This document shows positions 1-64,000 of a stretch of 64,000 nt of DNA, in pieces (position 1 is the stretch's first letter; each line of letters begins with the position of its first letter). Source of the stretch: Psilocybe cubensis (Eukaryota). The stretch covers positions 1,984,001 through 2,048,000 of the forward strand of contig CM039004.1 in the NCBI GenBank assembly GCA_017499595.2, in the 5' to 3' direction. A model generated the notes under the pieces. The model had not been told where the DNA came from. It made no database searches and saw nothing but the letters and a program-made list of their open reading frames with translations. Both the position numbers and the translations under genes were made by a program.

Positions 1-5
1 ACAAT

Positions 6-1973: not shown

Positions 1974-1984
1974 GAGGGGGGTGA
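1972..1984 (+). other. Polypurine tract (plus-strand primer)
   Basis: AAGAGGGGGGTGA lies between the pol stop and the LTR TG. Confidence 0.85.
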
Positions 1985-2157
1985 TGTTAGAGTTCCCTCT
2001 AACGTAGACACACACACGTGCCTGTAGTCACATATCACACAGTATTTGTAGACACACCCGTAGCTACGTAGCCTCAGTTCCTTCTTTGTTAGCACACCCA
2101 ACACGTTCTGGTCCTTCGTCTCTCTCTCCCGCCTCGTCTCCGGGTCTCCTCCTAACA
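1985..2157 (+). repeat. 3' LTR (173 bp)
   Basis: Begins TGTTAG and ends CTAACA (6-bp terminal inverted repeat), directly after the PPT. Confidence 0.9.
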
Positions 2158-4057: not shown

Positions 4058-4190
4058 TTTTGTACATAGTAGTAGTTGTTGTAGATTAGATTAGATCTGG
4101 ACAAGTTGTACATGTTTGTCTAGCCGGCTTATGTATTGATCGTCCAAAAAGCAGGTGCTCGTCGTTGTCCGCGTCCTGCATGTCCCAGTG

Positions 4191-7100: not shown

Positions 7101-7665
7101 AAATCCACGTTATATCATATCATCGAGCAACGAACTGATGCATTTGTTTAGCCTGGTCTGGCTTTGTTGACCCTTTTCCTCAGTAGAGTGGAGGTGATCA
7201 AACAAACGATAGCGACGTCTGATTTGGCAGATGTGGCAGAAGCCCCCACAATCGAGGAGAGTCAGCAATGGTACGCTCTATTTCTCTGGCATACCTTGGG
7301 ATTGTGTATTCATTGACCACATCCGTAGGCGACTAATGTTTGATCATCTGTTCCAACTGCTTGCACCTCATCTGCTCTCCCTATTCCCTTCATCCCGCAT
7401 TGTCAACCCAGATCCTGCCAACCATCCGGTGCCAACGGATACTGTGGACCAACCTGTCTGGCAATTCCTAGCAGCCTTGGCTCTGCATGGGTTCAACGAG
7501 CAACATCATGTGTTGGTTGGAACACTCCGTGAAAAAATTTTGGACAATGTCCTCAGTGTAAACAAGGGCTGGGTCCACGACGAAGAACAGCGACAAACCA
7601 AGCTAGCCAATGTTAATCTCTTCTTGCATGCCGTTAACCTAGACAGCTCTCAAATTGCTATGTAA
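4191..7665 (+). CDS. PAT1: Pat1 mRNA decapping activator (multi-exon)
   Basis: N-terminal MAFFG...DDLNDETFG, Q-rich middle, conserved LMTQSDKDFITRIQVSQLVTQDPYADDFY and LQGALGK, PHPFISLL..KGKKILPR. Confidence 0.9.
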
Positions 7666-7756
7666 TGATGCTTTGGGAAACCCGGGACGATACGACTACG
7701 ATATATGATATCACATCTTTTTTTACTACCATTTTTTTAAATAGCGTACATGCTAC

Positions 7757-10295: not shown

Positions 10296-10532
10296 AGTGG
10301 CTGCTTGTCAAGTGAGTATTGAAACGCGTAGAGAATGGTTTACAGTAGCCGTCACGTGGGCGCGATTCTATCCTTCGCATTAGGTCAGTGTGGTGTAGGG
10401 TGCGTGCAATATATACTAACTATGTACTATTATACTATGAAGATAAAAACATTTTGGCGGGAGCTGGTATAGCAATGATAATCAGATATGCCGTCATTAT
10501 CCTCAGAGTGTCATAAAAATCAGTCATGTCTA

Positions 10533-11775
10533 TTAATCAGATCGGATGGCCGCTTCTGTAAAATGCAGAAAAGATCATTTAGGTCCATTTGAATAGAATA
10601 AGGAAGAGCAAGTGAGACGAACTGAAGAACTCGTAGGACATCCAGCACAGCGCGGAACTCGGCATGATAGTCAGTACTCTTGGCGTCAATCCTCTCCCGA
10701 ATCCTTTCAGTCCGTCCCTCGCCCAGATAACTTTGAATGCGTCGGCCATACCCTTGACATTCCGGATGTCAGCTTCCGTGGACGCCCCTCGTGTCTGCAG
10801 AATCGTCTTGGCTACGTCGAGAGGCGTTGTCACAGCGGCAGCCACTGCACCAGCAATTCCTCCAGCGATTATGTGGGACTGGGGCGAGTATTCATTTCGG
10901 GGGTTCATGAACTTTTTGAGATGGTCGTAGACGGTGTATTGGATGGCATTGAAGGGAATCGTAATGGCTAATGTTGTGGGGTAGGAAACGTAGAAGGCGC
11001 CAATACCCTCTGCTCGGTAGACTGAGCGAGCGCACACCCATACAGAACGGAATTCCGACTTGTGAACCTGCATTCGTTGCTTGACAACTAAAAAAAGGTT
11101 ACTACATGAGTGGCAAAAAATATAATTGATACTCACCATCGAAAGGGTTCATAAAAGCGTCGGCTGCTATCGTACCTGAGGCTCCTGCCAATGCTGCGGA
11201 GTTACGAGTGGTAGTTTTTAAGACCAAAAAATTGCAAAAGGAGAGCGAAAAGGAACATACAAGTAGCTAACCACTGGTTCCCAGCCTCGTTGCCTCCACA
11301 TAGCTCCTTGACTGCCTCTAACGTCCCGAAATGCACTGCGTGAGCGGGACCGGCACCGAGAATGACGGATGAAACACCTCTCCAGAGGGCTCGGACTCCT
11401 TCTGTGGAGGCGATCCTGGAGAATGCATTGCCAACACCGCTGTATACAGCGAGCGGTGATGTGGCGAAAACCTGCATCCGTGTCTGCGCGCGAGAAAAGA
11501 CTTTGAGAAAGAATTCCCAGCCACGATACAAGACCCACTTTGATACTGTCTATGGGGAACATCACAGCGTGCTCGGAAATGCCAGCCTATGGCGCCTTTT
11601 ACTGAGTGAAGGACATATGTGGCTGAAAGGGAATCTTACGAGTGCGCCTGCAAGCATATTGACCTAGAAAAAGAATTGGACGCGTCAAGAATTGGGGGAG
11701 AAAACTAATTATACGCCAACTTACACCAAGACCGGCATTTGAGGGTAGACCCTCATAGTCGATTTCGTCGGCCAT
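10533..11775 (-). CDS. Mitochondrial carrier, mitoferrin (Mrs3/4) type
   Basis: MADEIDYEGLP start, three carrier repeats (PIDSIK, PFDVVKQR, PLDVAKT), GAGPAHAVHF. Confidence 0.9.
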
Positions 11776-11975
11776 GGTATATACTGGTGACGAGGAGGTC
11801 TAAGGTGGGTCTCTGAGGTGGGTGCTGGTGGAAAGCAAGAGAGACCTCACTGCCTGGGAGCTGGAAGGAGATAAAAGGTGTGAGCCTGTGAAATATTCAA
11901 ATTGACCTCCGCGGCAAAATTAGTCTGAGCAATAACCGTTGTGTTTTATTACACGCTACTAACAACTTGTTCTAA

Positions 11976-14900
11976 CTATAATCCAAGCTCGCCATTAGAT
12001 ACAAAGTGCGATCCTCCTTTACAGCGATATCCAGAACCCATCTTAATCCACTGATATCCAGCAACGCAGACTCCCATTTCCCGCAGTTTCGCCTGTGCTC
12101 TTGCTTCCTTGGCCTGTCGCTGCCTCTCTGCTTCTCTCCGTGCACGAGCTTCAGCTTCCGCCTTTGCTTGCTCGGCTCGTGCAGCCAGCGCCTTCAGGCG
12201 CGCCTTTTCTCTTTGTCGTTGCAGTTCGGCCCTTTCGGATGCCTCTTTGGCCGCAGCCTCTGCCAGTTGCTTGTCGGCAATCATCTGTTCTTGTCGTTGC
12301 GCCTCTTTTTTCGCCTCTTCCGCCTTTTTTTCCATCTCTTTTACCCGGTTTTTCGCATCCATTTCGATCCGTGTTGCTTTTCGCTTCATTGCCTCCATTT
12401 CATTCCATAAGGCATCGTTCACACCTGGGTCCCTTTGCACTTGTTGACGAGTTTGATGCGATTGTGATTGGCTAGTGTTGGCCCTGCTTTCTCCTCCGTC
12501 ACCGCGACCACGCCCTCGTCCTCTGCCACGGCCACGTCCTCTGTCGGATGCCTTTTGAGTGTTGGCCGTCGTCCTTGTCGCAAGGGTTGGAGGTGGAGGC
12601 GGAGTAGCTGTGAGTTCTTGCATATGCAAATCGGGTTGAGCGAGACGAGGTTTAGGAGGTATCTTTGATCTTCTCTGGCGATCCTTCAGTGCAATTTTCA
12701 TCACACCAACAGCATCGACGCCAGAAAGCATCGGGCTGGCACCTGGCGCGGCAGTTGTGAGAGATACCAATGCCTTGTTGATCATCTCTTTGGAAATTGT
12801 AATCATATCTCGTGCATTGCCCCAGTCTTGAAGCTCCGCCATGTCGCGAATGAGCTCCTTGATTTCAATGTTGGCTTCTGAGGATACGTCGACGTCCCAC
12901 CCATCAGTCTGAATCTTTTTCTTCTTTAGTTCGTTACTAACAATCTTCAAGCATTGTTCAGCATCCATGTTCACGAAAACCACCTGTTCCGGGAAACGAC
13001 TTGATAGCCCTGTATTTACCGACATGAGTTGGTTCATGTCTTGTTCGTATCCAGCAAGGATGACAATGAGTTTACTTTTGAAGTCGGGGTGTGTGAGGAG
13101 ACCAACGAGTTCGTCTATTGCCTCTTGAGCGAAATGGCCAACGCTTAGGCGGTACGCTTCATCGACAAAGAGGACTTTTCCAAGAGCTTTTTCAAACAGC
13201 TTTCTGGTCTTGGGGCCGGTTTGCCCGACATATTGTCCAACAAGGTCTGAAGCGGAGCATTCGATGACGTCCCCGGATCCCAAAATGCCCATGTTATAAA
13301 ACACTTGCCCTATTTTGCGCGCCACTGTCGTCTTCCCCGTACCTTCCAAAGGGGTTCAGTCAATAAATTTTATCCATCGAACAAAACAACGTACCGGGAG
13401 GGCCAGTGAAAACAAAATTTGTGGGGATAAGCTCTCTAGGATCCATATCCCTGGCAAGGCACGCCTGAACAACTTCTTGATAATTCTTCAGCTTTTGTAT
13501 TATATCTTCGCAGCCAACAATGTCGCTGAAGATTTTGACGAGGTCTGCTGCAGCGTTGGCACTCCTGTTCCAATCGGGGTCGATGTCTTCAGCTTCAATC
13601 GTGATGACAGAGGGCCTTTCAGAGAGAGGTATTTTCGACCTTCGCGCGATCGCTCGTCCTTTTGCTGCCGTTATGATATTTTCGACTTCACCTCCATTAC
13701 CAAAGTTAGGCCGATTTCTCATCCGGCTCAAACGATCTATGGCAGTTTTCTTGGCCTGTGGAGTGGCCTCAAGCTCTTGATCCTTCAACTTCAACTCCAG
13801 AATCTTCAGAAGTTCATCATCGTTGAAATTCTCAAAGTTGAATGCTTCCTCGATTTTGAAACGTCTCGACAATCCGGGGTTCACGTTCTTGCAGCAGTTT
13901 AGGTTATGTCGTTCATATAAATTTTCGAATGAGGCATACCTGGAACATCTCAAGCATTTGATCTTTGTAACCAGCAAGGATAACGCAGCGGTCTTCGCCA
14001 GGCACATTCTGCACTTCAGCGACAATGGTGTCGATGACTGAAGTCTTGTATTGATTTGATCCTGAAGACACATCGTCACTTCCACCTCCTCCGTAAAGCA
14101 TGTATGCCTGCAAACAATCCGTGAGTAATTGTTGTCTTCGAAACGTTACAAAGGTGCTAACCTCGTCTATAATCAATACTTTACCGACTGTGTTTGCCAA
14201 AATTGCCTTGGTGTTTGCCTCGGATTGTCCCAGTGCTGAGCCGACAAAGTCAGAGGGGTTTTTCAGAATAACTGTCAATATATAACGTCTTGTCAGCCTG
14301 GTTTTCAAAATGCGTTTGAAAATGCACAAACCTTCACCGTTGCTCAGGAGACCAATGTCAGCCAGAATGCTGCCGTACAACTTTGCCACTGTGGTCTTGC
14401 CAGTACCAGGGGGTCCGAGGAACACCTTGTTCAGAGAGAAATCCAACACTCCTTTCTCCAAAAGCTCTCGCTGATAGTTCTCTTCAATGGAACTAAAAAG
14501 GCTTTTAATGGACTCCTTGACCGACTTCAACCCTATCATCTGCTGTAACTTGAGCCACGCCTTGCTTTCTTTGATGGCAGTAGAGGGATCAGGACCTATG
14601 AGATCTTCTCGCGTCATCAAAAAGTCGTCCGGTTGTTTGCCCTCCTGGCGTTCTTTTGTTAACCGAACCGCCTGTCGTTTTTTTATATGCGATAGGACTG
14701 TTTGCAGATCGCGGGCATTACCGAAACCAGGGCGACCCCGACGTCTTCCAAGACGTCGAATCGCGATACGACCATACAAGCCTGTAATCCCGCCTTCGAC
14801 TTTCATGCGTCCAGCAAAGTCCTTCTTGATATAGTCCTCCAGCATACGCATGAGTTCCGCATCTTCGTAGTCGGCAAATTGAAACTCATAAGGCACGCGA

Positions 14901-37283: not shown

Positions 37284-43437
<6,154 letters not shown>

Positions 43438-44051
43438 ATAAAAATATTTATATATAGTGTGGTTTCTATTAGAATAAATACCTATTCTAATACCTATTAT
43501 ATATACTGCATAGAGCATTCCACAATTAGGGCAGATTATAGCAAGACTATCTAATAAAATGGGTAGTCTTGCATATTGGATTAGCAAACTGACCAATATA
43601 CCCTTACAATGGTGGTCTGGCCATTAAACATTTTATGTTACATTTATATTTGTATTACTTGTTACATTGAAGAGTTTTATATTATATTTCTTTCAATGAT
43701 ATGGCACCATCTTAGTTTGTATCTTATTTTTTTACCTACTCTTAGTATAAACTATTCTTTTTTATTAGATAGCTACCAAAATACAATACAGTTTGTATCT
43801 ATTGTATTGAGACTATTCTTTTTCATTAGATTATGGTTCCTAGAAAATAGTGAATTAATACATATTTATTTTACTTAACCAACCAGTGTAATGACTAGAT
43901 TTATACATTTGCCATATGTTAGTAAAATGTCTTGTTTGGAGTGATAGTACAATTCCCAAGCAATAGATTGTGATGTTTGTGTTTGTCACTAGGAGGGAAG
44001 CAAAGCTATTATCACTCTTTACAGAATAGCACAAGCTTTGAAATAGATGTG

Positions 44052-45345
44052 ATGCATATCGGCAAAAGTGACAGGATCCCCAAATTCCTTGAAAGGTCAT
44101 TTGGAGGTGTCCAAATGCCCCAAGGCCCAAATGGCCTTTTAGATTGACTAACAAGAGACTCGGAATCTTGAAATACTATAAATCATTTAATAAACCCAAT
44201 ATTTTAGCTAGATTTAAATTTAATCAAATCATTTAGGTAAAATTTGGGAGACGCAAAAACATTTGGATAACATTTAAGTTGCATTTGAGAGTTCTAAAAA
44301 CATTTAGGGTTCACTCAATGTTGACACAATAATATGTTTTGCATATTTCTACTCCTGGCAGCCACTTCATGTATTCACACAACAGGATGTAACAATTCAA
44401 AGAAAGATTTTATTGAAAAAAATTTAAACCAACAGAGGCTACATAGAAAACGGATTCAAGTTCATACAATCTGGGAAAAAGTGACGGAGTCACGTGATTG
44501 AATTGATGCACTATAAGGTTGATGAGTCATGGTCAAATAAATGTAAATATATGCGCATATACATACCAATGAGGTGACCAGAATAGTTGTCTGGTTAATA
44601 GATACACTCTAGAAAAGGAAGTAATCAAGGCAGAGGGAGAAAAGCCATGAAAAGGTATAAAACAGTCAGTTAGGCTTGTGTGATGAAAAAGAGAGCATGT
44701 CTTTCACCTTTTCGGCTCTATTAACAGTTTTGAGGTGCAGAAAGAGGCATAGCAGTGGTAATTGAAACCAGAGAGCGCCGTCGTCAAAGTGGTGGACATG
44801 AGAGGGTAGAAAGAAAGCAACTTGGGTGTGTCTCAGATTTTTATGCTCAAAACAGATGTTCAGTCTCCAATTTAATTTATCAGTGGAGACAGGCTTCTCT
44901 AATTTATATTTCTTAAAGTTAAATTTCCCATGTACATGTAATTCTTATGACAATGGTGTCGTATTGGAAACAACCTGCTAGCGTCATAGGTATTACATGT
45001 GTTCAGTAAAATTTCTTGTACCTAAATTATTTTGAACATATTTGAAGCCCTTTAATCATCTGTATCAACAAAAAGTTGAATTTAATGTTTTATTCTTTGT
45101 TTTTATTTTTAATCAATTGTTCCCTGCAAATCATTAAGAGATAAATGTAAGTACATGGAATATTTTGTACTGAACTTTGAGGTGTATAAATGTTTGTGGA
45201 GCATTCAAATGCTCTCCAAATGTTTTGTGCACCTCTAAATTTTAGTGAAATGTTTTTGTGTAACTTAATATGTCACGCAAAACATTGACCTACTTAAAAA
45301 GGCACAAAAGGCATTTGGATATCTGGTCACTTTTGCTGATGTGGA
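44052..45345. mobile_element. Decayed non-autonomous TIR DNA element
   Basis: ATGCATATCGGCAAAAGTGACAGGATCCCCAAATTCCTT (~44052) resembles the reverse complement of ~45305-45345; a second inverted block pairs ~44225-44285 with ~45200-45257. No ORF inside. Confidence 0.55.
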
Positions 45346-45546
45346 TGAGTAGTATACACAGTACTGCATACCAGTTATAACTATAAAAAGGCTATTTCAC
45401 CTCTAATTCACAAATACAAGTAAGAGTGCTTGTTAAAGTTGTGTGCACACACTTATTTTTCAAGTCTCTTGGTATAAACAGTCTTGTTCAGAGATGAGAT
45501 TCTCCCTTAATAGGTATGGGGGTGGACCCTCAAAGTCTCAATAATC

Positions 45547-45632
45547 AAACTGCAACCCTCTTGGTTACAGGTGCCCTCTTGGCTAATAAATAATTGAAAC
45601 TGCAACCCTCTTGGTCACAGGTGCCCTCTTGG
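45547..45632 (+). repeat. Direct repeat, two 36-bp copies, 50-bp period
   Basis: AAACTGCAACCCTCTTGGT(T/C)ACAGGTGCCCTCTTGG at 45547 and 45597. Confidence 0.85.
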
Positions 45633-46399
45633 ATATAACATAAATAGAGTGGGAGCTCTTTCCTTGGAAAAGAACTTGCAGACCCACGCCGGTAGCCTCT
45701 TGCCCTGATCACTTCCTGGGCGCTAACTCAGAACGTGTAGAAAATGACTTGCAATACAAGTGCTCTTAAGCACTAGAGTACTTTATATCCAAGTCCAGGT
45801 CAACTACACTTGTGTTTTCCTTCACTTTGACAATAAGCTTGTCTGCAAAACAACTTATCACACTATTTGAATGTGGGGGTTCAGAATAAATTAGTACTCT
45901 TGATTTTTGGATATGAAATTGCTTGTCCTTAGACTACAACTTGTCCAATATAGGCCATTTTTTTTATTTTTTATTTTGTATTATAGCCTCTGAGGGGTGG
46001 ACCCCTCCCTTGGCTTGGTACGTACTACTATCTACAACACTCCGATGGCGTTTTTGCTGTCCTTGACCTCCTTTTGTGCTACAGAGGGCCCTCACATCCC
46101 CCTTCAAAGCCCAGCCCTTCCTTGGACTGTTTGCGAGAGCGTCTCAAGCTTTCTATAGACTCTTTCCTCAGCCTCTTTTCTTCTTACAGTGACTCTGTCA
46201 TTGGTGTTTGTATCCTCTTATCTCCTTTCCTCTCCCTCCTCCTTATCTAGTCCCCTCTGTAGTATGTCCTCTTTGTATGGTCGTAGCCTCTTTGTTTTCG
46301 CAATAAATTTTATTAGTGCTTTTACATGACTGGTTTTTGTGGTGAGGTCCATTAAGTTTAGGCTTTGCTCGCCTATCTTGTCCCACATTTCTTGTCGCT

Positions 46400-49300
46400 G
46401 TCTTTAGTATTCCCTGCATTTGAGTAGGAAGCGTTTGACAGTTTTGACCACTCTTTGGCCGTCGCATCTTTCGAAGCATTGTGGGCAGTGCTTGTCCTGT
46501 TCCATGTTTATCCTGCTGAGATGGTTGTTCAGTGGGATGTGTCCCGAGCGCAGCTGGATTATAACGCTGGCTTGGGTTCTATTGAGTGTTTTCAGCACTT
46601 TTTGATACCTGTTGAATGGGAATTCGGTGTCAATGTGTTGGAATTTGGCCTTTCTCTTGGAGTTATCCCATCAATCTCACCATATTGTCATTAGTTCAGC
46701 ATGGTAGACTTGTTTCTCGGCTGATGCACTGTATTTCATTTTATTTTGCAGCAATTCTGGGAGTTCTTCAACTGGCAATGATTTGCCTTCCGCCGCCCAC
46801 TTAGCTTCCTCGTCAGCTTTCTCGTTTCCTAGTACATCAGAGTGCCTGGAGATCCAATGTAGGGTAATTTTCCCCTATAGGTCACAATATTCTTTATCAA
46901 TGTTCAACATGAAGTGCTGACCGGACTTAGCTTTAGGCCATTCCAGGTTTTTCAGTAGCAATTGATTATTGCTGAATACGTCTATCGTACTTCTGCGTGA
47001 TGGTTTCTCATTCCGTATCAGTTTGGAGGCTAGTAGGCCTCCTACTGCTTCGGCTTTGTACGTGTTGTGCTCGTCTTTTGTACACATGTATAGGCGGAGA
47101 ACCTTGCCATGTTGGTCTCTACAATTTTTGAAGAGCACTGCCGCTATCATACCCGAATCCTGATTGGAGATGAGATGTTCATTTTGGATCTACACACGAT
47201 GCCCTCAACCCAAGCAGTCATTCTTTCCATAAGTCATCCACTCATCTTATCTTATCAACACTCATCATATGGGAGCCACGTTATTCCGGATCATGTTATT
47301 CTGTCAGATCATCAAGGCTATGCAACGGATTAGTCAACCATCAAACTGCACAGCTTTTTACACTGCCTTGCACAGCCAGACTATCAACTCTATTTTTATC
47401 AACTCAATGGTCTTACTCAGCGTCAGACTGCAGATTACTCATTCCAACTTATTTTTGGTTTGTCTTACTCATCCTTTTGTGTTTATTTATATCTTTTCTA
47501 TTGTCTGTTGCACTTTTATTGTCTTTGTCTTACCAATCTTCTATGCTTTCTGACTCATCCTTGCTTCTTTTATCTAATCTGTATTACCATTCACCTTTGT
47601 CGTACACTTCTTTCATACTCATCCTATTCATTTCTTATCTGTCATCGTGTCGATATTGACATGTCTTATTGTTCTTGCTTATTGTTACACTTGCGTAGCC
47701 TCATTCTTGACACTTTGTACAGTATATGACTTGGTTTTCAGTAGCTCAGATTGGTATTTTGTTCACGTAGCTTTTAGTATAAAAGCTGTAGTAGAATTAC
47801 ACAAAATGATAGGAAAGTTACACCCAGTCCCCACTTTCTTCAAAGCAAGTCAATTTTCATCCAAGTCAAGTCAATTTCAAGTCAATCCATATCAATTCAT
47901 TTCAATTCCAAGTTCAAGTTTAAGCCAAGCCCAAACCCAAGTCCAATTCAGTCATCAGTTCCACCCTCCGTCGAGACCAAGTTTACTTCCATTCATTCGA
48001 AGTCATCTCGCTTTCCATTGATAGAGGATTTCTTCCAAGACCAGTCCTCCTTCTCATCCAACGCCTCTTCTTCTCAGCATTAAACATCCCATGTCTATCC
48101 AGACATCCAGTACTCCCTACTTCCTCTCCCCCATCCAATCCGTCACTGCTCCTACTCTTTCTACACCTTCCAACCATTGCCGTTAGGAGTGTATTCAAGA
48201 CATCCTTTCCCTCCGTCAACTCATCTGGAGCTATTTCATTCGAGACAGACTTAGTCTTTCATCCTCAATTCAGTCAATACTCCCACAACGTATAGCTTCA
48301 TTCCAAGCTTCAGAAAGATTGTCAATTTAAGGACACTTTCATCTTCACCATTCCCAAGATTCAGCCCTTCAATGACGTTCCAACTTCTAGTCATCTTCTT
48401 ATTTCCCCTCAAAACATTCCCCACTCACTTCAGACAACCCCTCTAAGATTCACATTTATTGATTTTTTATCCGCATTCTACGCACCTTCTTCACGCTTTC
48501 CATATACACCCGCCATCCAATTTTACGGTTCCATCACATTTTTGGAAGGCTTATTTACCATCGTACCCAGACGACCTGGTTATCCTCTTCTTACCATTTT
48601 GCTTTTGTTACCTTTCACAATCCACACCATCCTAATCTACTTAAATCCTAGGCAGCGTCCTCCCTTAAGAAACTTAGGAGAAGGTTTTGTCCTATTCAAT
48701 CTGGACCACTCTTTCCCTGGGGTTTGTGTTTGTTGGATTACATATAGTTTATAACCAATCACAAACTTCGATCTTCACCGCGCCTCCAGTTCTATTATCG
48801 TGGCTGGACCCGTTGGTATACACTCTGATGTCGGCGGTGCTTTCTCTTTTGTATTTTATTGATTCCTCTTGCGTTTTGGCTATGATGATCTTGAAGGGTG
48901 GGTGGTAGTTTGAAGTGTTTGGCATAGGTGAGATTGTTTCTATTGTGCTTGGTTTGAGGTCAAATACACGTATCAGATTGTTTATTGGGGTTTTATGTTG
49001 TTTTTCAGGGCAGGTCTTGGCTCTCAATATTGCCTTGTAGAGAGGATGCGTGTCGGGTAGTGTTGATATACATACCATAGCCCTGCGACAGGCCTTGAGT
49101 AGTGCCAATTTGAGTGGGAGGACGCCCGCATGGGCATCTAATAGTTCGGTGGGTGTCAATCTCATCGCTCCAGTGATTGACAGGGTGGCCTTCCGCTGTA
49201 TTGTGGACATTCTTCTGAGTGCCGTTACCAATCCAATATTGTTTTTGTATCCAATTGGCTTTGTTGGGGGGTGTACCATACGTCAATGCCATATGTTAAC

Positions 49301-53454: not shown

Positions 53455-54472
53455 TGACAGTTTTAATGGGTGTGGGTGTTTTTGTGTGTGAGTGTGGGAT
53501 TTGGGTACTTAAGGTACATGTTTTGTGTGTATATTACTCTACTCAAAAGCTTTTACTCCCTTCAGGTTGTTCCTTTACGCTCTATGTGCATGGAAAACTT
53601 GCTGGAGGTGGTGGTTGCGGATTAAGGAGCGGTAATGTAGGCCATTGCTTATAGCATAGCATTTACAAAGCTTTTTTTATCTTGCTAGAGCGATACAATT
53701 CAAGTCTGTTTTTTCATTCTATGAAGCCCTCTTTTATAGAACTCTATTAGGATATAGCATTTTCAATATAGAAAATTATTTATTCTATAAAGAGACTACT
53801 AAAATTCTATAAACCTATTGTCTTCAAGCTCTGCACGGTGGCACTATCCAGGATATAACTAATTTGCCACTGCTTGTATTCAAATGTGTGGTGTCCAAAA
53901 AGATGACACATGGCTACAGTCACCAGACGCATGGTTAGATAATTTGTGATGGAATATGTAATGTTTATTTAAAAAATGTATTGACATTTTATTGCATAAT
54001 TAGCAGCTAATTATGCAAGAATTATGTTGTCAGAGATTAAAAAAGATGATACACATTTATCCATAGATTATGTAGACATTATGTATTTATAAAAAGATTA
54101 CATATCTTTTAAATATCATTTGTATTGACTAATATAACAATTATGCAAAATCTATACAAATATAAAATGTAATAAAGCATGGCATACCTTTGTTGTGGCA
54201 TTTTTGATGTTTGTTATTAGAGTTCTAAATTGAAATTTCCAAATTGGCGTATAAAGCTGTTGGCCAAGTTTGGCAGACTATTTTCCGCCTGTGGAGTTAA
54301 TGTCACAAAAATTTCTGCAAGAGGACATTATTTTCTAGCCTTGGCACATTTATTTTCTTGGTGTTAGGGTAGAAAAAGAGAGCATGACATGCAGTGGCAT
54401 ACATGTTGTGGATATATTGTGGTGGACTGCGGTGTTGTTGGGGTTGAGAACACAATATGCATGATACTGCGT

Positions 54473-54531
54473 TGAAGATCGAAGTTTGTGATTGGTTATA
54501 AACTATATGTAATCCAACAAACACAAACCCC
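54473..54531 (-). repeat. Second copy of the terminal 59 bp of the solo-LTR-like element
   Basis: Exact reverse complement of 48719-48777; identity stops abruptly at 54531. Confidence 0.88.
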
Positions 54532-54974
54532 CACATAAGACAGTTTATTTATAACGTACATTACCTAAGATTTAATAATAAGGATATTACGTGAGACACG
54601 GTGGATTTACTTCCGCTACCTAATTAGGAGATTAGCGTGATGTACGTGTGATTTAGCCTGGCAAATCATAGCGTACATGACGTGCCATTTAGCGCTAAAT
54701 GGAGCCGCCGGGTGGCCTGCGGGATCCGCGCGTCTACCTACACGGAAGAAACATGGGCCGGAAATGAGCCGGACGGGTCCATTTGCATCCCGTGTATTGC
54801 AAGCAGACAGATCCGCTTGACCCGTGTTGTGCTGTCAGACGGACCCATTCATCCATCTGCTTCTGTATTCCGACAAATATCCGCCTTGAATCGTACATTG
54901 GATGACCGTTAATATATGTAATAAGGTGTATAGATTATACTGGCAGCAAATTCCTTTCCACATACCCTGATAGT

Positions 54975-56254
54975 ATGGATTATGCCTTTGAGCTAACCCA
55001 ATCCCTCTCAAACTACATGAAGGCAAAGATAGCTAGTCGTCTTTGGCATGCAGAACTGCCTAATCAAATCCGGGAAAACTTCAGTGCTGAGACCATGTTT
55101 GAGTGCAATCTAGCTGTGGAGGTGATTTTGCAGGCATTTGAAAATCAAGGTATGCAATCAATAAGCTTTGAAAATTGAGATTAAATAATGTGTGAATGGC
55201 AGAATATACGACGTGGGATGCAGAAGAATATTTGACCCATCTCAGCGCACGTTGCACGGGTCAGAATTCTGCCGTTGAGGCTTGCCTGAAAGACCAGTTT
55301 CCTCCGGTGCATTCCACGTTACAGTACCAAACCCTGCCTGGAACTGTAATCGATAGTGCAGGCAACATATTGGTGTGGTACCTGCCAGGTATTTTGTCAG
55401 AGACAAGGGTGGTGAGTTTTAGAAACGGACCGATTAATTCCTATATTATGCGTTCTAAAGAGTAACAGGAGAGTGTGTGGAATTCATTACGGGATATTGA
55501 AACAATGATTCACAAGGCGGCACCTTTGGCCACAAGCTGGAGGGTCAATGACAGTTACTTTCGACATGAGCCAGGTTGGCTTCAACCTGGAAATCTTAAC
55601 TTTTCCCCGGCATGGTTTCAGCAAGGCCATGAGGTGAGAAACTTGTTTGCTAAGTATTATACTGCCTCATATTTTCCTCAGACGTCCAACCCGCTTGAGG
55701 TCTCCTTGGACTTGTGTAATCCTATTGGACAGGAGTTTATACGAGACATGATGACATCTTCGGCTTTGCTGGGAGCCATCTTGAGCATTATACACCCCGA
55801 GCAGTACCGGGCGGGAATAAAATTTCTTCAACGGCTTGCTGCGGAACCGGAGCTCGTCCATAAGGCCGAAATATTGAAGCAAATTCTCACAATATGGAGT
55901 TCGCCCTTTGGAGTCATGACCGCCATCAGCAACCGAGATACATCGTACCATCGGGATAATGGGTCATGCTACTCATGGTACGATTTTTTGATGCCACTTG
56001 GGAAGGGTGAACACGGACGGCTTGAGCTTCCTGGCCTTGGACTTCGGTACAAGTATGATCCCATGACCCTTGTTGCAATTACCGGCAGGTTGCTTCAACA
56101 CGGCGCGGTGTGCAAGGGAGATAGGGCAGTCATAGTCTATTACATGCGTAGGACTGTATTTAAAGAGCTGGGAGTCCAAGAGGCGGGATGGTCTACTACG
56201 TACGATCTTTTTGCAAATTTACCGGCCACCAATACTTTTGATTTTGAAATATGA
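54975..56254 (+). CDS. TET/JBP-family Fe(II)/2-oxoglutarate dioxygenase, 4 exons, ~373 aa
   Basis: Exons 54975-55149, 55203-55411, 55469-55633 and 55682-56254 splice in frame. Motifs ILVWYLPG, NFSPAWFQQGH, NRDTSYHRD (HxD), LELPGLG..Y.P, LLQHGA (H), GDRAVIVYYMR (R). Confidence 0.87.
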
Positions 56255-56349
56255 TCAGTTTTTGACTTGGAAGTTGGGTTTGGGGAAGATTTTTTTATAT
56301 TTCCAAAACAAAACGGTACAAAAGCTACAGAACAACCAGAATTCTCTGT

Positions 56350-56620
56350 CCCAGGGTGTTTCCGACGCGCCCGCGCTGAGCTCTTCCAAGGTTACCGGAA
56401 TCATCGGACTCCGCCATTGTATTACCGGCGGAAAAGGCATCATCCGCCTCCTCTTTGATGTCCTGTGCGAGAGGTGGGCAACTAAGATTCCTCATCCCAG
56501 GGTGTTTCCGACACGTCCTCGCTAAGCTCTTCCGAGTTACCGGAAGCATCTGACTCCTCCGTCGTATCACCGGCGGAAGACTCCTCATCCGCCTCCTCTT
56601 CAAAGTCCTGTGCAAGATGC
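56350..56620. repeat. Diverged direct repeat (~125-bp copies, ~146-bp period)
   Basis: CCCAGGGTGTTTCCGAC..CGCT.AGCTCTTCC...TTACCGGAA..CCGGCGGAA..CATCCGCCTCCTCTT..GTCCTGTGC occurs twice. Confidence 0.8.
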
Positions 56621-58106
56621 TCTAAAAACGTAGCTGGTGTAGAGGATTCAGTGGTATCGGACGTACTATCAATATCATCCTCTTCTCCCGGGAAAACAGG
56701 TCTTGACCTTGCGTTAAAAAGGAAGGCATTGCTGGTGTGTGCATTTGACGGAGGGCTGACGGAACTGGGAGTAGGCAGAGTATCTGTTGGGAGATGAATA
56801 TTTGCAGTGTTGGAGGGTGGCGAATGATACCAGAGTGGATGAAAAGGTAGTTCCTTGACGGCAATAAAAGAATAAAAAATGTTGTTGATGTAAAATGAAG
56901 CGACTTTGAGCTTTGAGACCTCGAAGGACCGGGCTTGAGCCGTTATAGCGCCCCAACTGTCAGGAGAAGGGTGAACGGGATGCTGAAATTTGTATTTGGC
57001 TGAAAGCCCCTTGCCGTTAGAGAACGGGTGCTCCTTAGAGTCAATCCACATCTTCTCCAATACAGAATATCTGCCCAAGGCGGCCGAAGAAGTAGTCACT
57101 GCTTTATGGGCATTCTTCATTTTGTCCGCCACATTCCGGCGCAGGTGAGCCAACTCCCTCATTACGCCCGTTAGGATAGGCTGACCGCAGCGGGGACAGT
57201 AGGGCGGTCTGTGGTCAGAAATTGCAATTGGGGATGTTTCATCCCGCGTGTTTGCAACACGGGTCGGCGGATTGGGTTTCCCCGTGGGCGGTGAAAACGC
57301 GGAGCCGTGCTTTCCCGTCAACGCGGATCCGTGCTTCCCCGAGGTGGGGACGGATGTCCGTTCAGCCGCCTTTCCCTTGCCCTTGGGATTGTTTTCCTGA
57401 TTTCTTGGAGGCCCAGAGGTAGATGAACTTGCGCCCTCCTTAGCTTCTTTCCTCTGATTATTTAGCCGGAGTACCTCTTGTTGGTATTCAGGCAGAACCA
57501 CCTGGTGGGAAGGACGCAAATCAGATATAATCCACAGCAATAAAAAAACATACCTTGTTCCAAAATTCTCTTGCTTGCGATTCAACGGTAACAAAGGCAA
57601 CTTGCCACTCATCGCCTTCAGCAAATCCGTCCCTCCACCAATATCCCCAGCTCTTGGTCTGATTTAAAATTTCATCATCTTCCCATGCTGACCAGCTTTG
57701 ATTTAGAGATTCAAATAAAACAGCTCGATGGTGGGGAGTTCGGTTCAAAACGGCATGTACGCTCTGATTGAGAATTTCTGATATAAAAAATGGAATATCG
57801 ACTTGGAATCCATTGACATAGCAGTATCCGAGTACTCTCAGCAGTATAGCCTGACGACCAGTTCTCAATACAAGATATAATCGTTCAAAATTACTGTCTT
57901 ACCACCTCCAGGTCGAGCAAATACATCCATTTTTGGCAACGCACGGAGGAAACAGAGTCTCCGTTTGCAATGAACAAACGGTATCCGGCACGGATCCGTG
58001 CACCACAAATATGGACATGAACTTTGGCCAGAGCACGTCGCTCATCATAGGTAAGGAGATGATGTTCGTCCTCGACAGGAGGTTTAAAAAGCCGCGGTAA
58101 GTGCAT
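56482..58106 (-). CDS. Uncharacterised transposon cargo protein (Trp-rich N-terminus, CPRC motif, acidic tail)
   Basis: Three successive minus-strand ORFs separated by GT-AG-like introns, starting MHLPRLF just downstream of the transposase stop. Confidence 0.55.
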
Positions 58107-58150
58107 GAATTCAACAAGATGGGATACAACAAGAATGTTCAAAGAACTGG

Positions 58151-61100
58151 TTAATCTGTAATTATAAATCTCCACACGGACGGATACTCCGGGTTAATTT
58201 GACGGAAGACCTTATCTGCGGCCCGCCCCAGATCATTCCACATGGCAATCTGCTTTTGAGCATTTGCCCTGTGACCAACTAACCTGTCAGGAACAAAATC
58301 ATGCCGTGCACGCCATGTCTTTGCCATATACACATAAAATCTGACAGTCCATTCCATTTCCTTTTTTGTCAAGGCCAGCTCCTCTTGCCATCTATTTCTC
58401 TGAGCTCGCGCGCGGAGCCAGTTTAGCCTGAAGACTAAGAAGCCCTTGAGAAAAAAATTAGAAATACAAATAGCAGTACTCACACTCATTAACGTATAAT
58501 TGATTATCATTGTCCAGGCCCTGACGGGATCTCCAAATCCAACTTAGACGGTCCGAGCTTCCTCCGCGAATGTTCGGATCCGACACGGCATTACTATGCT
58601 TGCAATCATGGACTTGCAGAATGGGATATTGTTTCCAAATATTATCCTCATCTCGCACGCCAGCAGATAAATAGATCATCTTCTGACGGTTTGTGTTGTA
58701 GAGTCGCCGGTGCAATTTCCAGGAAGCATTCAAAAGCTTGACGCCATCCCAAGCACGAGTCCCCATATAGACGGAGTCGGCGGTCCGAACCTGATATTTA
58801 TACTGCCAAGAAAGCTAGATCAAGGCTGACCGGACCGCTTCCAGACAGTCCTCTGCGTGGCCATGTCTTATTTGAAGTTCAAGTTTGCGAAGCCCTTTTA
58901 AAATGAGGTTTGTTCCCGCGTCAAGGCCGTCAAAGAAATCTTGTTTGACGGCGGAGGGAAACGGAAGCGGCTGTCGTTCCGGATCCGCGCAGGTAATGTT
59001 GACATTTCCAAGATCAGGATCGTCGTTGTCACTGACTTCATAGTCAAGTATGGGAGCGATGTCCCCTTGAATATCCTCCAAGACATCTTCGCCCATGAAG
59101 GTCATAGCGGATCGACAGAAGGCTTCAACGCGGGTCCGCATGGAGCGACGTTTATTGACCAAGTCAAGTTTCTGCGCGGTGGAAGGATGCTTTCCGAGCT
59201 TTCTGACATGGTTCCTGAGCTCCAATCTAAAAGCATGTTAAATTCTGTAGGATGCAATTGAAATAATCGTACTGCGCTTGCTCCAGTTTTAAGCCGGATG
59301 ATATCCATGCTGCCTTTCCAGTAGCACCATTAGATGTAAGTTCCATATTTGAAAGATGCAATTCAATTTCTTGGCGTCCAGCAGCCGTTTTCACTTTGCT
59401 TGCCATTACCTTGCCAACAGCGTCGGCCACACCTTGTTCTCGGTCCGCTTCTGCTTTTGAAATTTCATCTTCCCAAGTGTTGATGAGCCCGGAATCTTGT
59501 TGATCCATGATACCCCTATAAAATCGGTCTGTGATTCCGGACTGTTCCCGTGCCCGTTTGAACTTTGCAGCAATTGTTGCAGCCATATTAATGGTCTTCT
59601 TCCAGTTGGAATCCCCCATGTGGTCGTCCAAAACCTCTGCTCGATGGGCAGTGGTAGCGGAACGTGTACTCCGGGATGTGTCATTTAACACGGACCACAA
59701 CGGCTCCAGGATTTCTCCGTCAATGATTCCCACACCCGGGACATAGGTGGATGCGTAGTTGTAAAGACATTCCGTCTTGTGCCCGTGGACGTAAAATAAA
59801 CCAATTGCAAAAATCATTTTAACAGAAGGTGGCCAATGCATTTTTGTGGACTCTGAGAGATGCCTTGCCAAGTTAACGCAATATTGACAGTTTATATTGT
59901 AGATTTCCAAATGTTTTGTGATTCCCTGTGTGTTGGTAGTTTCCCTGGCCTGAGTCAAAGACCAATCCATGTGCATCTGCTTTTCGCCTTTGTCAAAATC
60001 GACAACACTGGATGGACAGAAGCATCCGTGCCTAGCACAAGCGTGTGCCCCAATTCCACGTACTCTCTTACCCGGGCTGACTCTGTTTTCAGCTTTCTGG
60101 GCGTGGTAGTTATGACATGTTTGTTCCTGATATTTTTTACATGGAGGATAAGCCATCCGCCGTGGAAGATTTTTTTGACACGGAAGGGAAGCATCCGCCG
60201 TGGAAGATTGTGACACGGAACGTAAGCATCCGCCGTGAAAGATAAATCATGGTAGATAACGCACCCGTTTATAACGTGGAGCAAGAGAAATTGCTTCCTT
60301 GATGTGCTCCTTGTATGGGCCCGGAGCAGTCATGTATCCTTCTCCAACGCTCAACCAAACATTGTCTCCCTCGTTTTTCTGATTGAGGTGATCTGCTTTG
60401 AAATTACCATCTGCAACATAACTACGTATGTACAGATTGCTATTTGCTGTTAATTGCAGTCACCCTTGAAGAATAACTAAAACTTGCCTGTCAGCATCAT
60501 CAATCCAGGTATCAGGTAGGTTTATTCCAGGCTGTGGACAGGCGGGGCAGAATAAGGCCAACTTCCCTCTCCTATCTTCAACTTTGGGATGATCCTCGGT
60601 CCGCGTCATTTGTGGTGCAGGCGGACCATCTAATCCGCCGTGTCCCAGAGACGGGTCCGTTGACATTCCGACTTCTTGAGACGGACTATCAGATCCGCCG
60701 TCAATTGGATCAGATACATTAATACCCATCCTCTCTGGTGATGAATCATGGCAATGATGATAGTAAGGGACCACCGCTTCTCTTGTATGCCCTTCTCCGT
60801 ATTGTCGTCTCAGGACAAGGTCCCTGTATTCTCTACTAAGCCTTCTCAATTCACGATAGCGGTTCAGCACCTTTTTTGGAAACGCTGGCGAAGTCAGTCT
60901 TCGCAACTTTTGGTAATACTGATAAGCCGACGTTTTGCACTCGAGGTTGTCCATCCGAAAGTCCTCAAGGACCTCAACTGTGAACACAGTTTGAACGTTT
61001 TCAAAGCTGGCTGCAAATAATCCCATCTCCAGATACTGTAAATCGATAGACGGAAGGCGGACGGACCGGCATGTGCATGTTCGCACGGGCAGATAATGGA

Positions 61101-62071
61101 CTCCGGAGATGTGCACAATTGCCTTGAAAGGAATTCCATTGTTGTCTGCTGCCTTTGGACGAGGTTGGTCCAGATAGGTTGTATCGACTTCCTCGAATAG
61201 ATCATCATCTTCATCGTCTCCATCGTCCAGCTCAACCAAATGGGGTACCTCCGGGTCCGCCAGAAGCTGAGCCGTAAAGGATTCTTGGTCATTGCTCGCA
61301 GGAAGCGGATCCAGGTCCAATCCGTGTTCATCCTCAAAGATGGGCGAATTGTTTCCGCCGTGCCCATGACTCCCGGATGAATTGTTTCCGCCGTCGCATC
61401 CTAGATGGCTCGGATCCGTGGGATAAGGACACCGCTTCCCATTATGACCCAAATACAACTTGACACCCACTTCCCACAGAGCTCCCGGACGGAAATATAG
61501 ACCCGTCCACTTCTCAACGCGGTGGAAAGGTGTAAATTGATGGTTTCTTCGCAGGCATTCAGAACACAAAATTCTAGAGCCAAAGCATTGGCAACATCTC
61601 CACACTCCAGACATTCCTTGACATTGCTGACACCGTCCATTCAGATCCGGATCCGGGGCTTCTCCTCCAATCATTGTTCCAAGATACACCTCTCGTTTCG
61701 GGAGCCATTCTCTCAGGTAATCATTTTGAGACTGGATAGGTAAAGTCATCCTGATCATTCTACTGAAAACATGTTAAACATACCTTTCCTCCCGTTCTGT
61801 CGTCATCTAGCTGTCTCAGGTTATCAAGTACCTGCTGATCAGTTAGATCTCCCGGATAATGAGGTATTTCTTCTTCCAGAATGTTGTGTTCATGGTTTTG
61901 GAAAGAGTAAGTCGGTGTTTGAGGGAGGTTTGTTGATGATGATTCTGCAGGAAGTTTGTGGATCCTCGGCCGCCCTCTCTTTCGTTTCTTGGCCCCACTA
62001 GACCAGGAGGCCTCCCGAACATTGGGAAACTCCTCATCCGATCCCCTATCAGGTACTTTCTTGAAGCCCAT
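58151..62071 (-). pseudogene. CxC2-domain KDZ transposase, inactivated
   Basis: CxC2-type cluster (CQQC..WRCCQCFG..CSEC..H..PFHRVEKWTG..LGHNG..CP); CPACPQPGINLP, DGNFKADH, CARHG..VDFDKGE, YNINCQY, DGEILEPLWS, WLRARAQ.NRWQEE; in-frame TAG at 58815-58817. Confidence 0.88.
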
Positions 62072-62952
62072 GGATGTTGGAAACAAAGAGTCTGACAGCC
62101 TGTGAGCGCAGATCTAAATGTAGTATAACATGTTTATTTCTGTAGATAAATTTCCCTCAATTATGCCGTTGTAAAGAGGGGGAAAATAGCTTTTATATGA
62201 CCTATTTTGCAGCATATTTGAATGAGTGAGTGAAATGCTATGAACAAAACTTGATTCAGAGATGCATAAAATGGACGTGATCCCATCATAAATGTACAAT
62301 ATGATGCAGAATGACCCTTTCAGAACCACACTTTGGAGTGTTTTTGAAATATCTTTTCACTGGCTGGCCCCTCATTCCTCCGGCATATATCATATTAAAG
62401 ATAATCTCAACAGCTACACAGAATGACATTTTTTGTAGAAGATGAGTCCTCATATTTATGGAGATATTCTCAATATACTAGAAAATGTGTCAAAATGAGC
62501 TCACTGGGATCATTATATTTTTTGAAAAAAATTATGCATTTGAATACCTCTCATGGTCTCTGAGATGACTGCCGTTTTGGGTTTCACAAGTTTTGGGTGA
62601 GAAGACGTGAATTTGAATTTTGTGTTTCTGTATCTTTACAGCCATCTAACAAGAATTTAAAACCTTGTAAAATTATCTTTATATAAAGCGCTAAATGTTT
62701 ACAAAATTTCATGTTTATTGATTGAGTGCAGAGGGAACTATTGCAAAATCATGAGGTCAATGTATGTGACAGCGACCAGCATGCTTTGATCATCGTGGCC
62801 GACGATGAAGCGGGATTACCTGATTGGGAAAAATATGACATCACATCATTCATTTAGTATGATCGGAAGCTTATTTTATCTCCGTATGACGTGAGATTTG
62901 ACTAGATCACACAGATACTCATCGATAAGCTACTTGTTACATCGCTGCAATT

Positions 62953-64000
62953 ATGCCCACCAATGCATCCCCCGACGCGGATCCGCTTCCTTCCACCGCA
63001 AATGCCACAACCCACAACGGACCCAGAAGCGGACAGACGGCGGAGGGTGACTTTCCGCCGGAAGAATCAAATATATGGACCACAAAGGAAATGCGCGTGT
63101 TGAAAAAGCATGTACAGCCCTACAAAGATACATCAAAGTCATCCAAAGCAGACTACATACAGAACACTGTCATACCTGAGCTGCAAGCTACATGGGATCA
63201 CAGATACTCTAGACGTGCTAGGAAGGAAGATAAGCAACTACACAAAGAATAGAAGGTGAAGAAGCATGTGAGCTCGTTGTTTCTTTGAAAATTTTGTTAC
63301 ACACATAAACCATCACAATAGCGAATATTTAATTGGTTTAGAAACCATGCGTCAAATCGAATTGGTGTAAAATTGGAAGGATTGAACTCCCGTATAACCT
63401 TTCAGACGGTATTCCGTGAGGAGAAGTCGGCAGAGATTGACTCCGAGGTTGCGCTTCTATCAGGGAATGCTGCTCGTGGAAGTAAAGATTGGATGAAGTT
63501 TTATCAACAAGAACGTAAGCAGGTTGAGGCCAGATTGACTCAGGAGGAGCGGGACAGGTTCATGGAGATCCTTGAGGAATGGAATAAGAAAGGTGTTTCA
63601 AAATCAATGAAGGCAAAGTGAGTCGGTGGAACTTGTTTCCGCCGTCAATCTGACATCTGCAGGACTGCTGCCAGGCAAGGCAGAAAAATACTTCGACAAA
63701 TGGAGAAACTTAAGTGGCAGAGAATGGGTATGAGGTCCATTACCTTTGAGGGGCATTATGATATTGAGGGTAAAATTGAATACTCAATGTAAGTGTTAAA
63801 CACGGCATGAACAAGTTCCGCCGTGAATGCTTACGGCGGAAACTTTATCCGCCGTAGGGTGTTTACGGCGGATAAAGTTTCCGCCGTAAGCATTCACGGC
63901 GGAATAATTTGGCCCGTATTAATGTTGACTGATGGGCATTGAAGGACCCAGACAAGCAATCTAGCACTCGACGATGTCAGAATTCCTTCCTTTGGGCAAC
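62953..64000 (+). pseudogene. Transposon-borne helical/HMG-like DNA-binding protein (3'-truncated, premature stop)
   Basis: Spliced exons with WTTKE, WFRNH and WMKFYQQ..LTQEERDRF..EEWN; TAG at 63250-63252 (probably former TGG) within the exon. The HMG call is tentative. Confidence 0.5.
63816..63904. repeat. Perfect inverted repeat, 41-bp arms and 7-nt loop, intronic
   Basis: TTCCGCCGTGAATGCTTACGGCGGAAACTTTATCCGCCGTA-GGGTGTT-exact reverse complement. Confidence 0.95.

Follow-up and report, generated by a model that had tools for sequence, protein, structure and literature searches.

In maize, the 12-bp TnpA motif of En/Spm and the AAACGG motif of Ac contain CpG, are sensitive to methylation, occur in both orientations and are read by a protein of the element itself, and their repeats crowd into the few hundred bp next to either end. 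In Arabidopsis, according to PMC5735166, VANC21 binds a 9-mer that has built up in tandem in introns as well as upstream regions and that differs between families, and the accessible text of a preprint (bioRxiv 10.64898/2026.08.24.746577) describes how TnpA of Spm binds a clustered, family-specific CpG motif, CCVTCGCAAA, which leads to CG hypomethylation. Among fungal transposons, the Kyakuja elements of Agaricomycetes, e.g. Kyakuja-1_LB, combine a CxC2-containing KDZ transposase with a convergent TET gene of the AG type, and, according to the main text of PMC12730594, their ends are 5'-CA..TG-3', they make target duplications of 7 bp and they lack terminal inverted repeats. It is an open question why fungal transposons carry TET dioxygenases and how a TET could favour its own element. 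Here we analyse a stretch of 64,000 nucleotides from Psilocybe cubensis (assembly GCA_017499595.2, contig CM039004.1, positions 1,984,001 to 2,048,000; hereafter the window), which contains a TET-carrying KDZ transposon with this architecture and, dispersed within it, the 8-mer TCCGCCGT. We propose, with a probability that we put at about one half, that this 8-mer is a family-specific cis-acting word, the cognate site of a putative sequence-specific DNA-binding protein encoded by the element.

The word was pointed out in a preliminary description of the locus, which took it for an element-specific recognition code comparable in logic to that of VANDAL/VANC. When both strands of the window are counted, TCCGCCGT and its reverse complement ACGGCGGA occur 18 times, compared with a mean of 1.09 and a maximum of 5 in 100 dinucleotide-preserving shuffles, none of which reaches 18. 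Sixteen of the copies are inside the element, where they span positions 58948-63903, and the remaining two, at 50596 and 52939, which the preliminary description did not list, are in the adjoining LINE-like (long interspersed nuclear element) retroelement. All positions given earlier for the word proved right within one base, the near-word CCGGCGGA was found at 56425, 56570 and 63054 as reported, and the remark that the host genes show no comparable density is borne out by the absence of the word from bases 1-48718 (48.7 kb of host DNA in this window only). Apart from the two retroelement copies, TCCGCCGT is therefore strongly enriched in the element and confined to it within the window. It is also the commonest 8-mer of 54532-64000; in host blocks of 9.5 kb other complex 8-mers have at most 8 copies, and only CAG-triplet words reach 14-15.

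Many of the sites are local duplicates of each other (three units in an intron, two 33-nt coding units and six sites in a palindrome), so that the number of independent places is about 8-9, which remains well in excess of chance. When the intron array is masked, 13 sites are left, versus 0.12 expected and a maximum of 2 in 300 first-order Markov simulations. The flanks of the separate clusters are unlike beyond about 1-5 bases, and thus the word was not spread within one larger duplicated segment. Most sites stand in close pairs or arrays: five pairs, inverted or everted, have spacers of 7-9 nt, and direct repetition occurs at distances of 33, 35-38 and 60 nt. The ratio of observed to expected CpG is 0.84 in the element, 0.93 in the host DNA, 0.59 in the retroelement and 0.47 in an AT-rich block next to it.

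The gene structure of the element was obtained by mapping the gene models of paralogues (P0001 for the transposase and P0121 for a divergently transcribed accessory protein) onto the window by tblastn. It confirms the earlier placement of the sites in introns and low-complexity coding stretches: the word sits where the sequence is free to change, i.e. in introns, in hypervariable linkers and in a repeat tail at the 3' end (Table 1). Three sites are in one intron of the transposase gene, seven in two introns of the accessory gene, and four in two transposase linkers. The introns that contain sites have canonical splice sites and are in accord with the paralogues' gene models. The transposase intron carries a minisatellite of 35-38 nt with the sites 60156, 60194 and 60229 (period 35, 3.1 copies according to Tandem Repeats Finder, TRF), and the palindrome with its six sites is within the 156-nt intron 3 of the accessory gene (63789-63944), whose next exon starts at 63945 (..YSM/TQTS..). 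Linkers 1 and 2 (the latter corresponding to residues ~431-530 of P0001) cannot be aligned with those of the sister family P0002, whereas the neighbouring blocks of 60 columns are 65-97% identical. In the 3' repeat tail, each of the two ~145-nt units has an inverted pair of the word or near-word (56410 and 56425 in one, 56555-56577 in the other). The site at 56410 reads TCCGCCAT in the window, and 441 of 449 whole-genome reads have G at position 56416, which restores the intact word and makes this a 17th site of the element. The TET gene has no intact word, only a one-mismatch form at 55268. As for the four linker sites, we considered and dropped the idea that they are selected as DGG/HGG peptides: they amount to two duplication events, and both linkers are wholly replaced in P0002.

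Table 1. Coordinates of the element, its genes, the word-bearing sites and other features of the window (positions counted from the first base of the window)
Feature	Position	Strand	Remarks
Inverted arms of LINE-like retroelement	48719-48781 and 54469-54531		
TET-carrying Kyakuja-type KDZ transposon	54532..64000		left end to window edge; right end beyond window
Left subterminal region, heptamer CGTACAT x4, both orientations	54555..54898		344 bp; 4 of the window's 11 copies of the heptamer
TET/JBP dioxygenase gene	54900..56257 (approximate)	+	90% identical to P. cubensis P0272 (373 aa)
Two ~145-nt tandem units	56391..56617		repeat families D1 and D4; at convergent 3' ends of TET and transposase genes
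Transposase gene (CxC2 region, KDZ catalytic domain, conserved C-terminal part)	56485..62071	-	P0001 (1691 aa, P. cubensis, 98% identical)
Second element-private word, palindrome CGGATCCG	57324, 57991, 58575, 58980, 61411, 61648, 62978		7 vs 0.61 expected, all within element
Single site	58948..58955	-	conserved coding block ..PFPSAV..; antisense to the gene's other sites
138-nt GT..AG intron directly before KDZ catalytic exon	60127..60264	-	skipped in P0001 model (..LAPRYKR/EQTCHNY..)
Two sites, 60634 and 60694 (60 nt apart)	60634..60701	+	hypervariable transposase linker 2; read as HGG, DGG
Two sites, 61354 and 61387	61354..61394	+	33-nt tandem duplication (family D2) in hypervariable linker 1; HGGNNS, DGGNNS
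Accessory gene, divergent from transposase	62947..64000 (cut by window edge)	+	P0121 family (668-aa paralogue, 98% identical, P. cubensis)
Everted pair ACGGCGGA, 9 nt, TCCGCCGG	63037..63061		low-complexity N-terminus of accessory gene; site 63037(-)
45-nt intron 2 of accessory gene, site 63638	63618..63662	+	junction ..SMKAK/TAARQ.. from P0121; GTGAGT..CAG
Perfect palindrome, 41-nt arms, 7-nt centre, six alternating sites (63817-63903)	63816..63904		inverted repeat I2, 100% complementary

The arrays are not constant among the copies of the element, as seen in the raw reads of one whole-genome run. Read depth is about 81 in the left flank (54001-54334, 334 bp) and about 430-920 per bin inside the element, i.e. 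roughly 5 to 11 times that of the flank, and the element is thus multi-copy. The number of units in the intron minisatellite varies, with read joints that leave out 38, 35 or 73 nt or step back by 34 nt. In the palindrome, 63 nt are omitted by two kinds of joint, with 139 and 120 reads, and what is left is a single hairpin of two sites with an 8-nt loop in either orientation; the six-site palindrome of the window is thus one variant among several. It contains both orientations of the 8-nt loop, each of which is found elsewhere in similar numbers of reads, and this hints at hairpin-driven inversion or duplication.

Relatives of the element were collected as metagenome contigs matched by the KDZ exon, namely 29 loci with a total of 88 kb and identities of 40-70%. 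The exact TCCGCCGT occurs in them once, and the related families carry other CpG-containing words. Upstream sequence of more than 200 nt before the KDZ exon is available for 16 loci, and 14 of these carry tandem arrays in it, 13 detected by TRF and one (L017) by the spacing of its word. Their periods are ~20-48 nt, most of them 20-24 nt, and higher-order repeats of 71-106 nt also occur. Four of these 16 contigs include the exons on either side. Of the four, L012 and L020 have the array in the same phase-0 intron with GT..AG ends, which follows a basic dipeptide; the corresponding intron of L002 is short and canonical and has no array, but contains the commonest word of the locus; and L022 has a gap of ~90 nt between the matched exons, no array, and its own word. 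Judging from these alignments, the array occupies the same intron wherever it is present together with both flanking exons. The largest array before a KDZ exon is the 1.1-kb intron array of L012 (676-1777), with about 40 units of 24 nt and a higher-order period of 94 nt.

Arrays make up 2,822 of the 7,868 bp upstream of the KDZ exon, compared with 853 of 48,690 bp elsewhere in the loci, a density about 20 times higher. Their cores are clade-specific and the matrix of word counts is block-diagonal; one clade has nearly invariant KDZ domains but array cores that vary in their central bases. In two of the related loci that carry a TET gene, the own word is spread over several kb, including the junction of transposase and TET genes (CCGCGGAA 18 times in L022 and CCCGTCGG 7 times in L011, versus 0.16 expected for each). 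All 11 of the 11 family words contain at least one CpG.

A word that is private to the family, lies in introns and linkers, forms pairs and arrays, turns over between copies and is replaced by other words in sister families presents the same five-part pattern as the targets of VANC, and for this reason we favour a protein-binding code. In particular, the Arabidopsis systems VANDAL21/VANC21 and VANDAL6/VANC6 (PMC5735166) share with it a short word that is dense in one family and scarce outside it, tandem repeats that sit in introns and further non-coding stretches of the element's genes and whose number changes from copy to copy, distinct words in related families, and element proteins with hypervariable tandem-repeat regions. 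The differences are that the host is a fungus, that the transposon belongs to the KDZ superfamily and not to the Mutator-like elements, that it has a TET dioxygenase of its own, and that some sites are in translated linkers; besides, the VANC21 9-mer, as given there, has no CpG, whereas all the words considered here do. Pfam finds no VANC-type family in the accessory protein or in the other open reading frames (ORFs) of the element, and the likeness is thus one of logic and not of descent. The Spm elements of Arabidopsis, in the accessible text of bioRxiv 10.64898/2026.08.24.746577, likewise have dense clusters of family-specific CpG motifs, with motif and family diversifying together; on the other hand, the Spm clusters are at the termini and host glycosylases are borrowed, whereas the clusters described here are internal and the demethylase would be the element's own. 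In the published accounts of the plant systems, the binding and demethylation by VANC are experimental and an element-encoded protein of Spm reads the motif and activates cognate copies; for the element described here both steps are putative. The element resembles the published Kyakuja also in its host group, its multi-copy state and its CA terminus; it differs in that the main text of PMC12730594 has no internal motif arrays, intron minisatellite or family words, although its supplements may show arrays. Full-text literature searches, together with searches for terms in the texts, but not the supplements, of PMC12730594, PMC8889193, PMC12810828 and bioRxiv 10.1101/2024.08.15.608186, found no account of such words, or of an array before the KDZ exon, for KDZ elements. 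The preliminary analogy with VANDAL/VANC has thus gained from the specificity within the window, the placement in introns and linkers, the turnover of the arrays and the words of sister families, while the accessory protein bears a weak likeness to DNA-binding folds.

We suggest that an element-encoded protein would read the word and that word and protein would drift together. The likeliest purpose of such a pair would be to mark the copies as "self" for activation or anti-silencing via the TET carried on board. This purpose is favoured because every word contains CpG, the dinucleotide that is methylated and oxidized by TET, and because the element has a TET gene of its own. Since the array intron separates the DNA-binding half of the transposase from the catalytic one, the output of full-length transposase could also depend on the state of that DNA.

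Two candidate readers may be named. The first is the N-terminal part of the transposase, with its cysteine cluster and CxC2 region: identity to the sister family is 65% in the first cysteine cluster, 77-80% in the CxC2 blocks and 88-97% in three core KDZ blocks. The second is the accessory protein, which has 280 relatives at E ≤0.001 in a representative library and whose nearest clusters in the ESM Atlas are from Basidiomycota only. It matches no Pfam family (the best hit, DUF4962 with E = 0.037, is below the threshold), and its comparison with PDB by sequence gives nothing meaningful (best E = 0.016 over 35 residues). Its structural model, built from an alignment of 50 rows, has pLDDT (predicted local distance difference test) values above 90 for residues ~40-430. 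In a fold search, this model resembles the GTF2I domain (Z-scores of 7.3 and 6.8, residues ~296-432), many HMG boxes (4.4-5.3, residues ~122-196) and homeodomains (4.5-5.0, residues ~39-120), while Foldseek finds no match in PDB at E = 0.001 or better. The predicted fold thus offers a weak lead towards a DNA-binding accessory protein, in line with the "HMG-like" label of the preliminary description, of which a weak likeness to HMG boxes, with Z about 5, remains. A search of the 29 related loci by tblastn found no relatives of the accessory protein; these contigs mostly begin inside the transposase gene.

It is tantalizing to consider that Kyakuja transposons might run an anti-silencing circuit of their own, private to each family and equipped with its own demethylase, although in this complete form the idea is tentative and rather unlikely to be right. 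A fast-evolving element protein would read the CpG word in introns, in linkers and at the junction of TET and transposase genes and would bring the element's own TET to the CpGs of the word, so that each family would reactivate its own copies only, while the intron array would act as a methylation-gated switch for full-length transposase. Such a circuit would be the fungal counterpart of VANC and TnpA. The family-specific CpG words of three TET-carrying families, together with the arrays in most of the other loci, provide a handle on the question of why these transposons carry a TET, since they supply defined probes, two candidate readers and the prediction that methylation or oxidized methylcytosine differs at the clusters of sites. 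If the proposal is true, private cis codes that diversify together with transposon families arose in fungi as they did in plants; if it fails, the arrays are still a practical marker for sorting the subfamilies of Kyakuja.

Several points weigh against a word with a reader of its own. The words of the related loci were picked post hoc as the commonest 8-mers of each locus, so that the diagonal of the count matrix is high by construction, and tandem arrays alone inflate the counts of words. The 29 loci are not independent, most of them belonging to one tight clade with few subfamilies. In 12 of the 14 loci with arrays the contig lacks the upstream exon, so that the intron is placed by position only, and in L014 the arrays stop more than 550 nt before the KDZ match. 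The AT-rich intergenic region between the divergent genes (62072-62946), where sites of an activator would be expected, has no TCCGCCGT site. The block around 58948 is conserved in P0002, and the site there, like the CGGATCCG copy at 58980, may be present for the sake of the protein. All the fold matches of the accessory protein are below Z = 8, a range that is common for the search tool. Kojima, in the available text of PMC12730594, speculates from published maps of oxidized methylcytosine that these TETs have no target specificity. Finally, the scatter of the own word outside the arrays is not significant in five of the eight long related loci tested (L003, L007, L009, L017 and L019).

The last of these results would be expected if the word had no reader and were a by-product of fast repeat turnover in unconstrained parts of the element, by slippage, unequal exchange, hairpin-driven duplication or short templated patches in gap repair, with the intron before the KDZ exon being an old minisatellite that drifts in each lineage. 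Such turnover certainly leaves its marks in the element, as the three intron units, the 33-nt and 60-nt duplications, the ~145-nt units and the six-site palindrome are evident local duplicates, the number of units and the length of the palindrome differ among copies, and the array units of related families look related by descent (e.g. with a GACGG.CACCCGT-like core in one clade). As the full explanation we nevertheless regard it as unlikely, since it would have to place the same exact 8-mer at about 8-9 places whose flanks differ, on both strands and in two genes, where 0.12 would be expected, and since it leaves unexplained why all the family words contain CpG, why the words of L022 and L011 are scattered over several kb, and why arrays are so much denser before the KDZ exon than elsewhere.

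The word could be read by a factor of the host rather than of the element, for instance by a fungal zinc-cluster regulator, with the element borrowing the host's control of transcription or chromatin. Zinc-cluster proteins read CGG triplets as inverted or everted pairs, and TCCGCCGT does contain CCGCCG/CGGCGG, with five of its pairs having the form CCG..N..CGG with gaps of 7-11 nt; the L022 word TTCCGCGGAA forms a CGG/CCG dyad. We consider this explanation improbable: the 48.7 kb of host genes and promoters in the window have no copy, the promoter-like intergenic region of the element is free of sites, and a host factor would leave unexplained that closely related families, probably within the same genomes, have different words.

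Improbable to the same degree is a role in transposition, in which the sites would serve as internal or subterminal binding sites of the transposase for finding and pairing the ends, as in CACTA and Ac elements with their subterminal repeats or in phage Mu with its internal enhancer. Elements of the Kyakuja type are reported to lack terminal inverted repeats (PMC12730594) and would need some other recognition signal, the sites are in close pairs and arrays, and there is a one-mismatch form of the word at 54598, 67 bp from the left end. However, no site that is intact, in the window or in most reads, lies closer than 1.9 kb to that end, the word extends from 1.9 to 9.4 kb inside the element with most sites deep inside genes, and the left 370 bp have instead four copies of another heptamer, CGTACAT, an arrangement unlike that of maize En/Spm and Ac; this judgement concerns the left end only, as the right one is beyond the window. 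For these reasons assembly of a transposition complex is also the less likely variant of the protein-binding idea. The CGTACAT repeats, together with a 16-nt palindrome, CATTTAGCGCTAAATG, at ~54688 in the same subterminal region, may be the true signals of end recognition. A function of the sites as RNA or DNA structure, i.e. in control of splicing or retention of the intron, as a source of small RNA or as a cruciform, is very improbable, because the two genes that contain the word are on opposite strands, it is found in sense as well as antisense orientation to transcription, and Rfam has no match on 54000-64000, even though the array intron parts the DNA-binding from the catalytic half and carries an in-frame stop, so that its retention would give a truncated protein, the related arrays have periods of 20-24 nt, and the palindrome folds as DNA with -58.2 kcal/mol (z = -14.35).

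The assignment of the element to the Kyakuja type, as opposed to Dileera or Zisupton, is provisional and is based on the combination of CxC2 and TET in its architecture and on its Agaricomycete relatives. Pfam recognizes the KDZ domain (PF18758, E = 2e-34 on 59230-60246, minus strand), the CxC2 domain (PF18803, E = 2.2e-21) and, in the ORF 55466-56254 on the plus strand, Tet_JBP (E = 6.3e-20), and the closest proteins to the three genes are all from P. cubensis. The left end is at 54532/54533 and begins with (C)CA; 678 reads with unlike sequence to the left of 54532 (agreement 0.35) mark this terminus. The TET gene is inside the mobile unit, as its read depth is raised like that of the rest of the element and the step in depth is to its left. 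The ORF 56485-57663 was considered as a separate cargo gene and rejected: it is the conserved C-terminal part of the transposase, with which the P. cubensis gene model unites it, and 16 of the metagenome loci have matches to parts of this region. Most of the checked copies of CGGATCCG encode x-Asp-Pro in coding linkers, and one is in a 24-nt tandem duplication (~57295-57340).

The copy of the element in the window is decaying by C-to-T (or G-to-A) change. Among the best-supported 40 of 999 differences between the window and the reads, all 35 near-fixed ones that fall within the element are a T or A of the window against a C or G of the majority, and in 24 of the 35 the majority form is a CpG, which implies only that the family is exposed to deamination. 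One such change is in the accessory gene, where the stop codon at 63250-63252 (TAG) owes its A at 63251 to the window copy, the majority of reads having G (TGG). Of the CpGs in the motif, 1 of 34 has decayed, versus at least 23 of ~414 other CpGs, a comparison that is underpowered and biased by the way in which the sites were found, and that we did not use. Contigs of three further runs (X10, X12 and X13) over the sites have 0-3 differences per piece from the window and are uninformative on conservation. A minority of reads belongs to deletion derivatives, with a loss of 994 bp in the TET gene (54874-55869, 27 reads) or of 41 bp in the transposase (59170-59212, 30 reads), and in 37 reads a stretch of 67 bp (54687-54755) is swapped for 9 other bases.

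The retroelement next to the transposon has endonuclease, reverse transcriptase and zinc-knuckle ORFs on the minus strand and lies between inverted arms of 63 nt that are 98% complementary. The arms belong to a high-copy repeat, since behind 54531 a different continuation is seen in 1137 reads; its reverse complement is found to the left of 48719, which means that the KDZ element was inserted into the right arm. On the other side of the retroelement, the AT-rich block 42001-48718 (GC content 0.38), which adjoins the repeats, looks like old, decayed repeat DNA. At the far left of the window, in 1-14203, the abundant CAG-triplet words are probably polyglutamine-type coding repeats of host genes.

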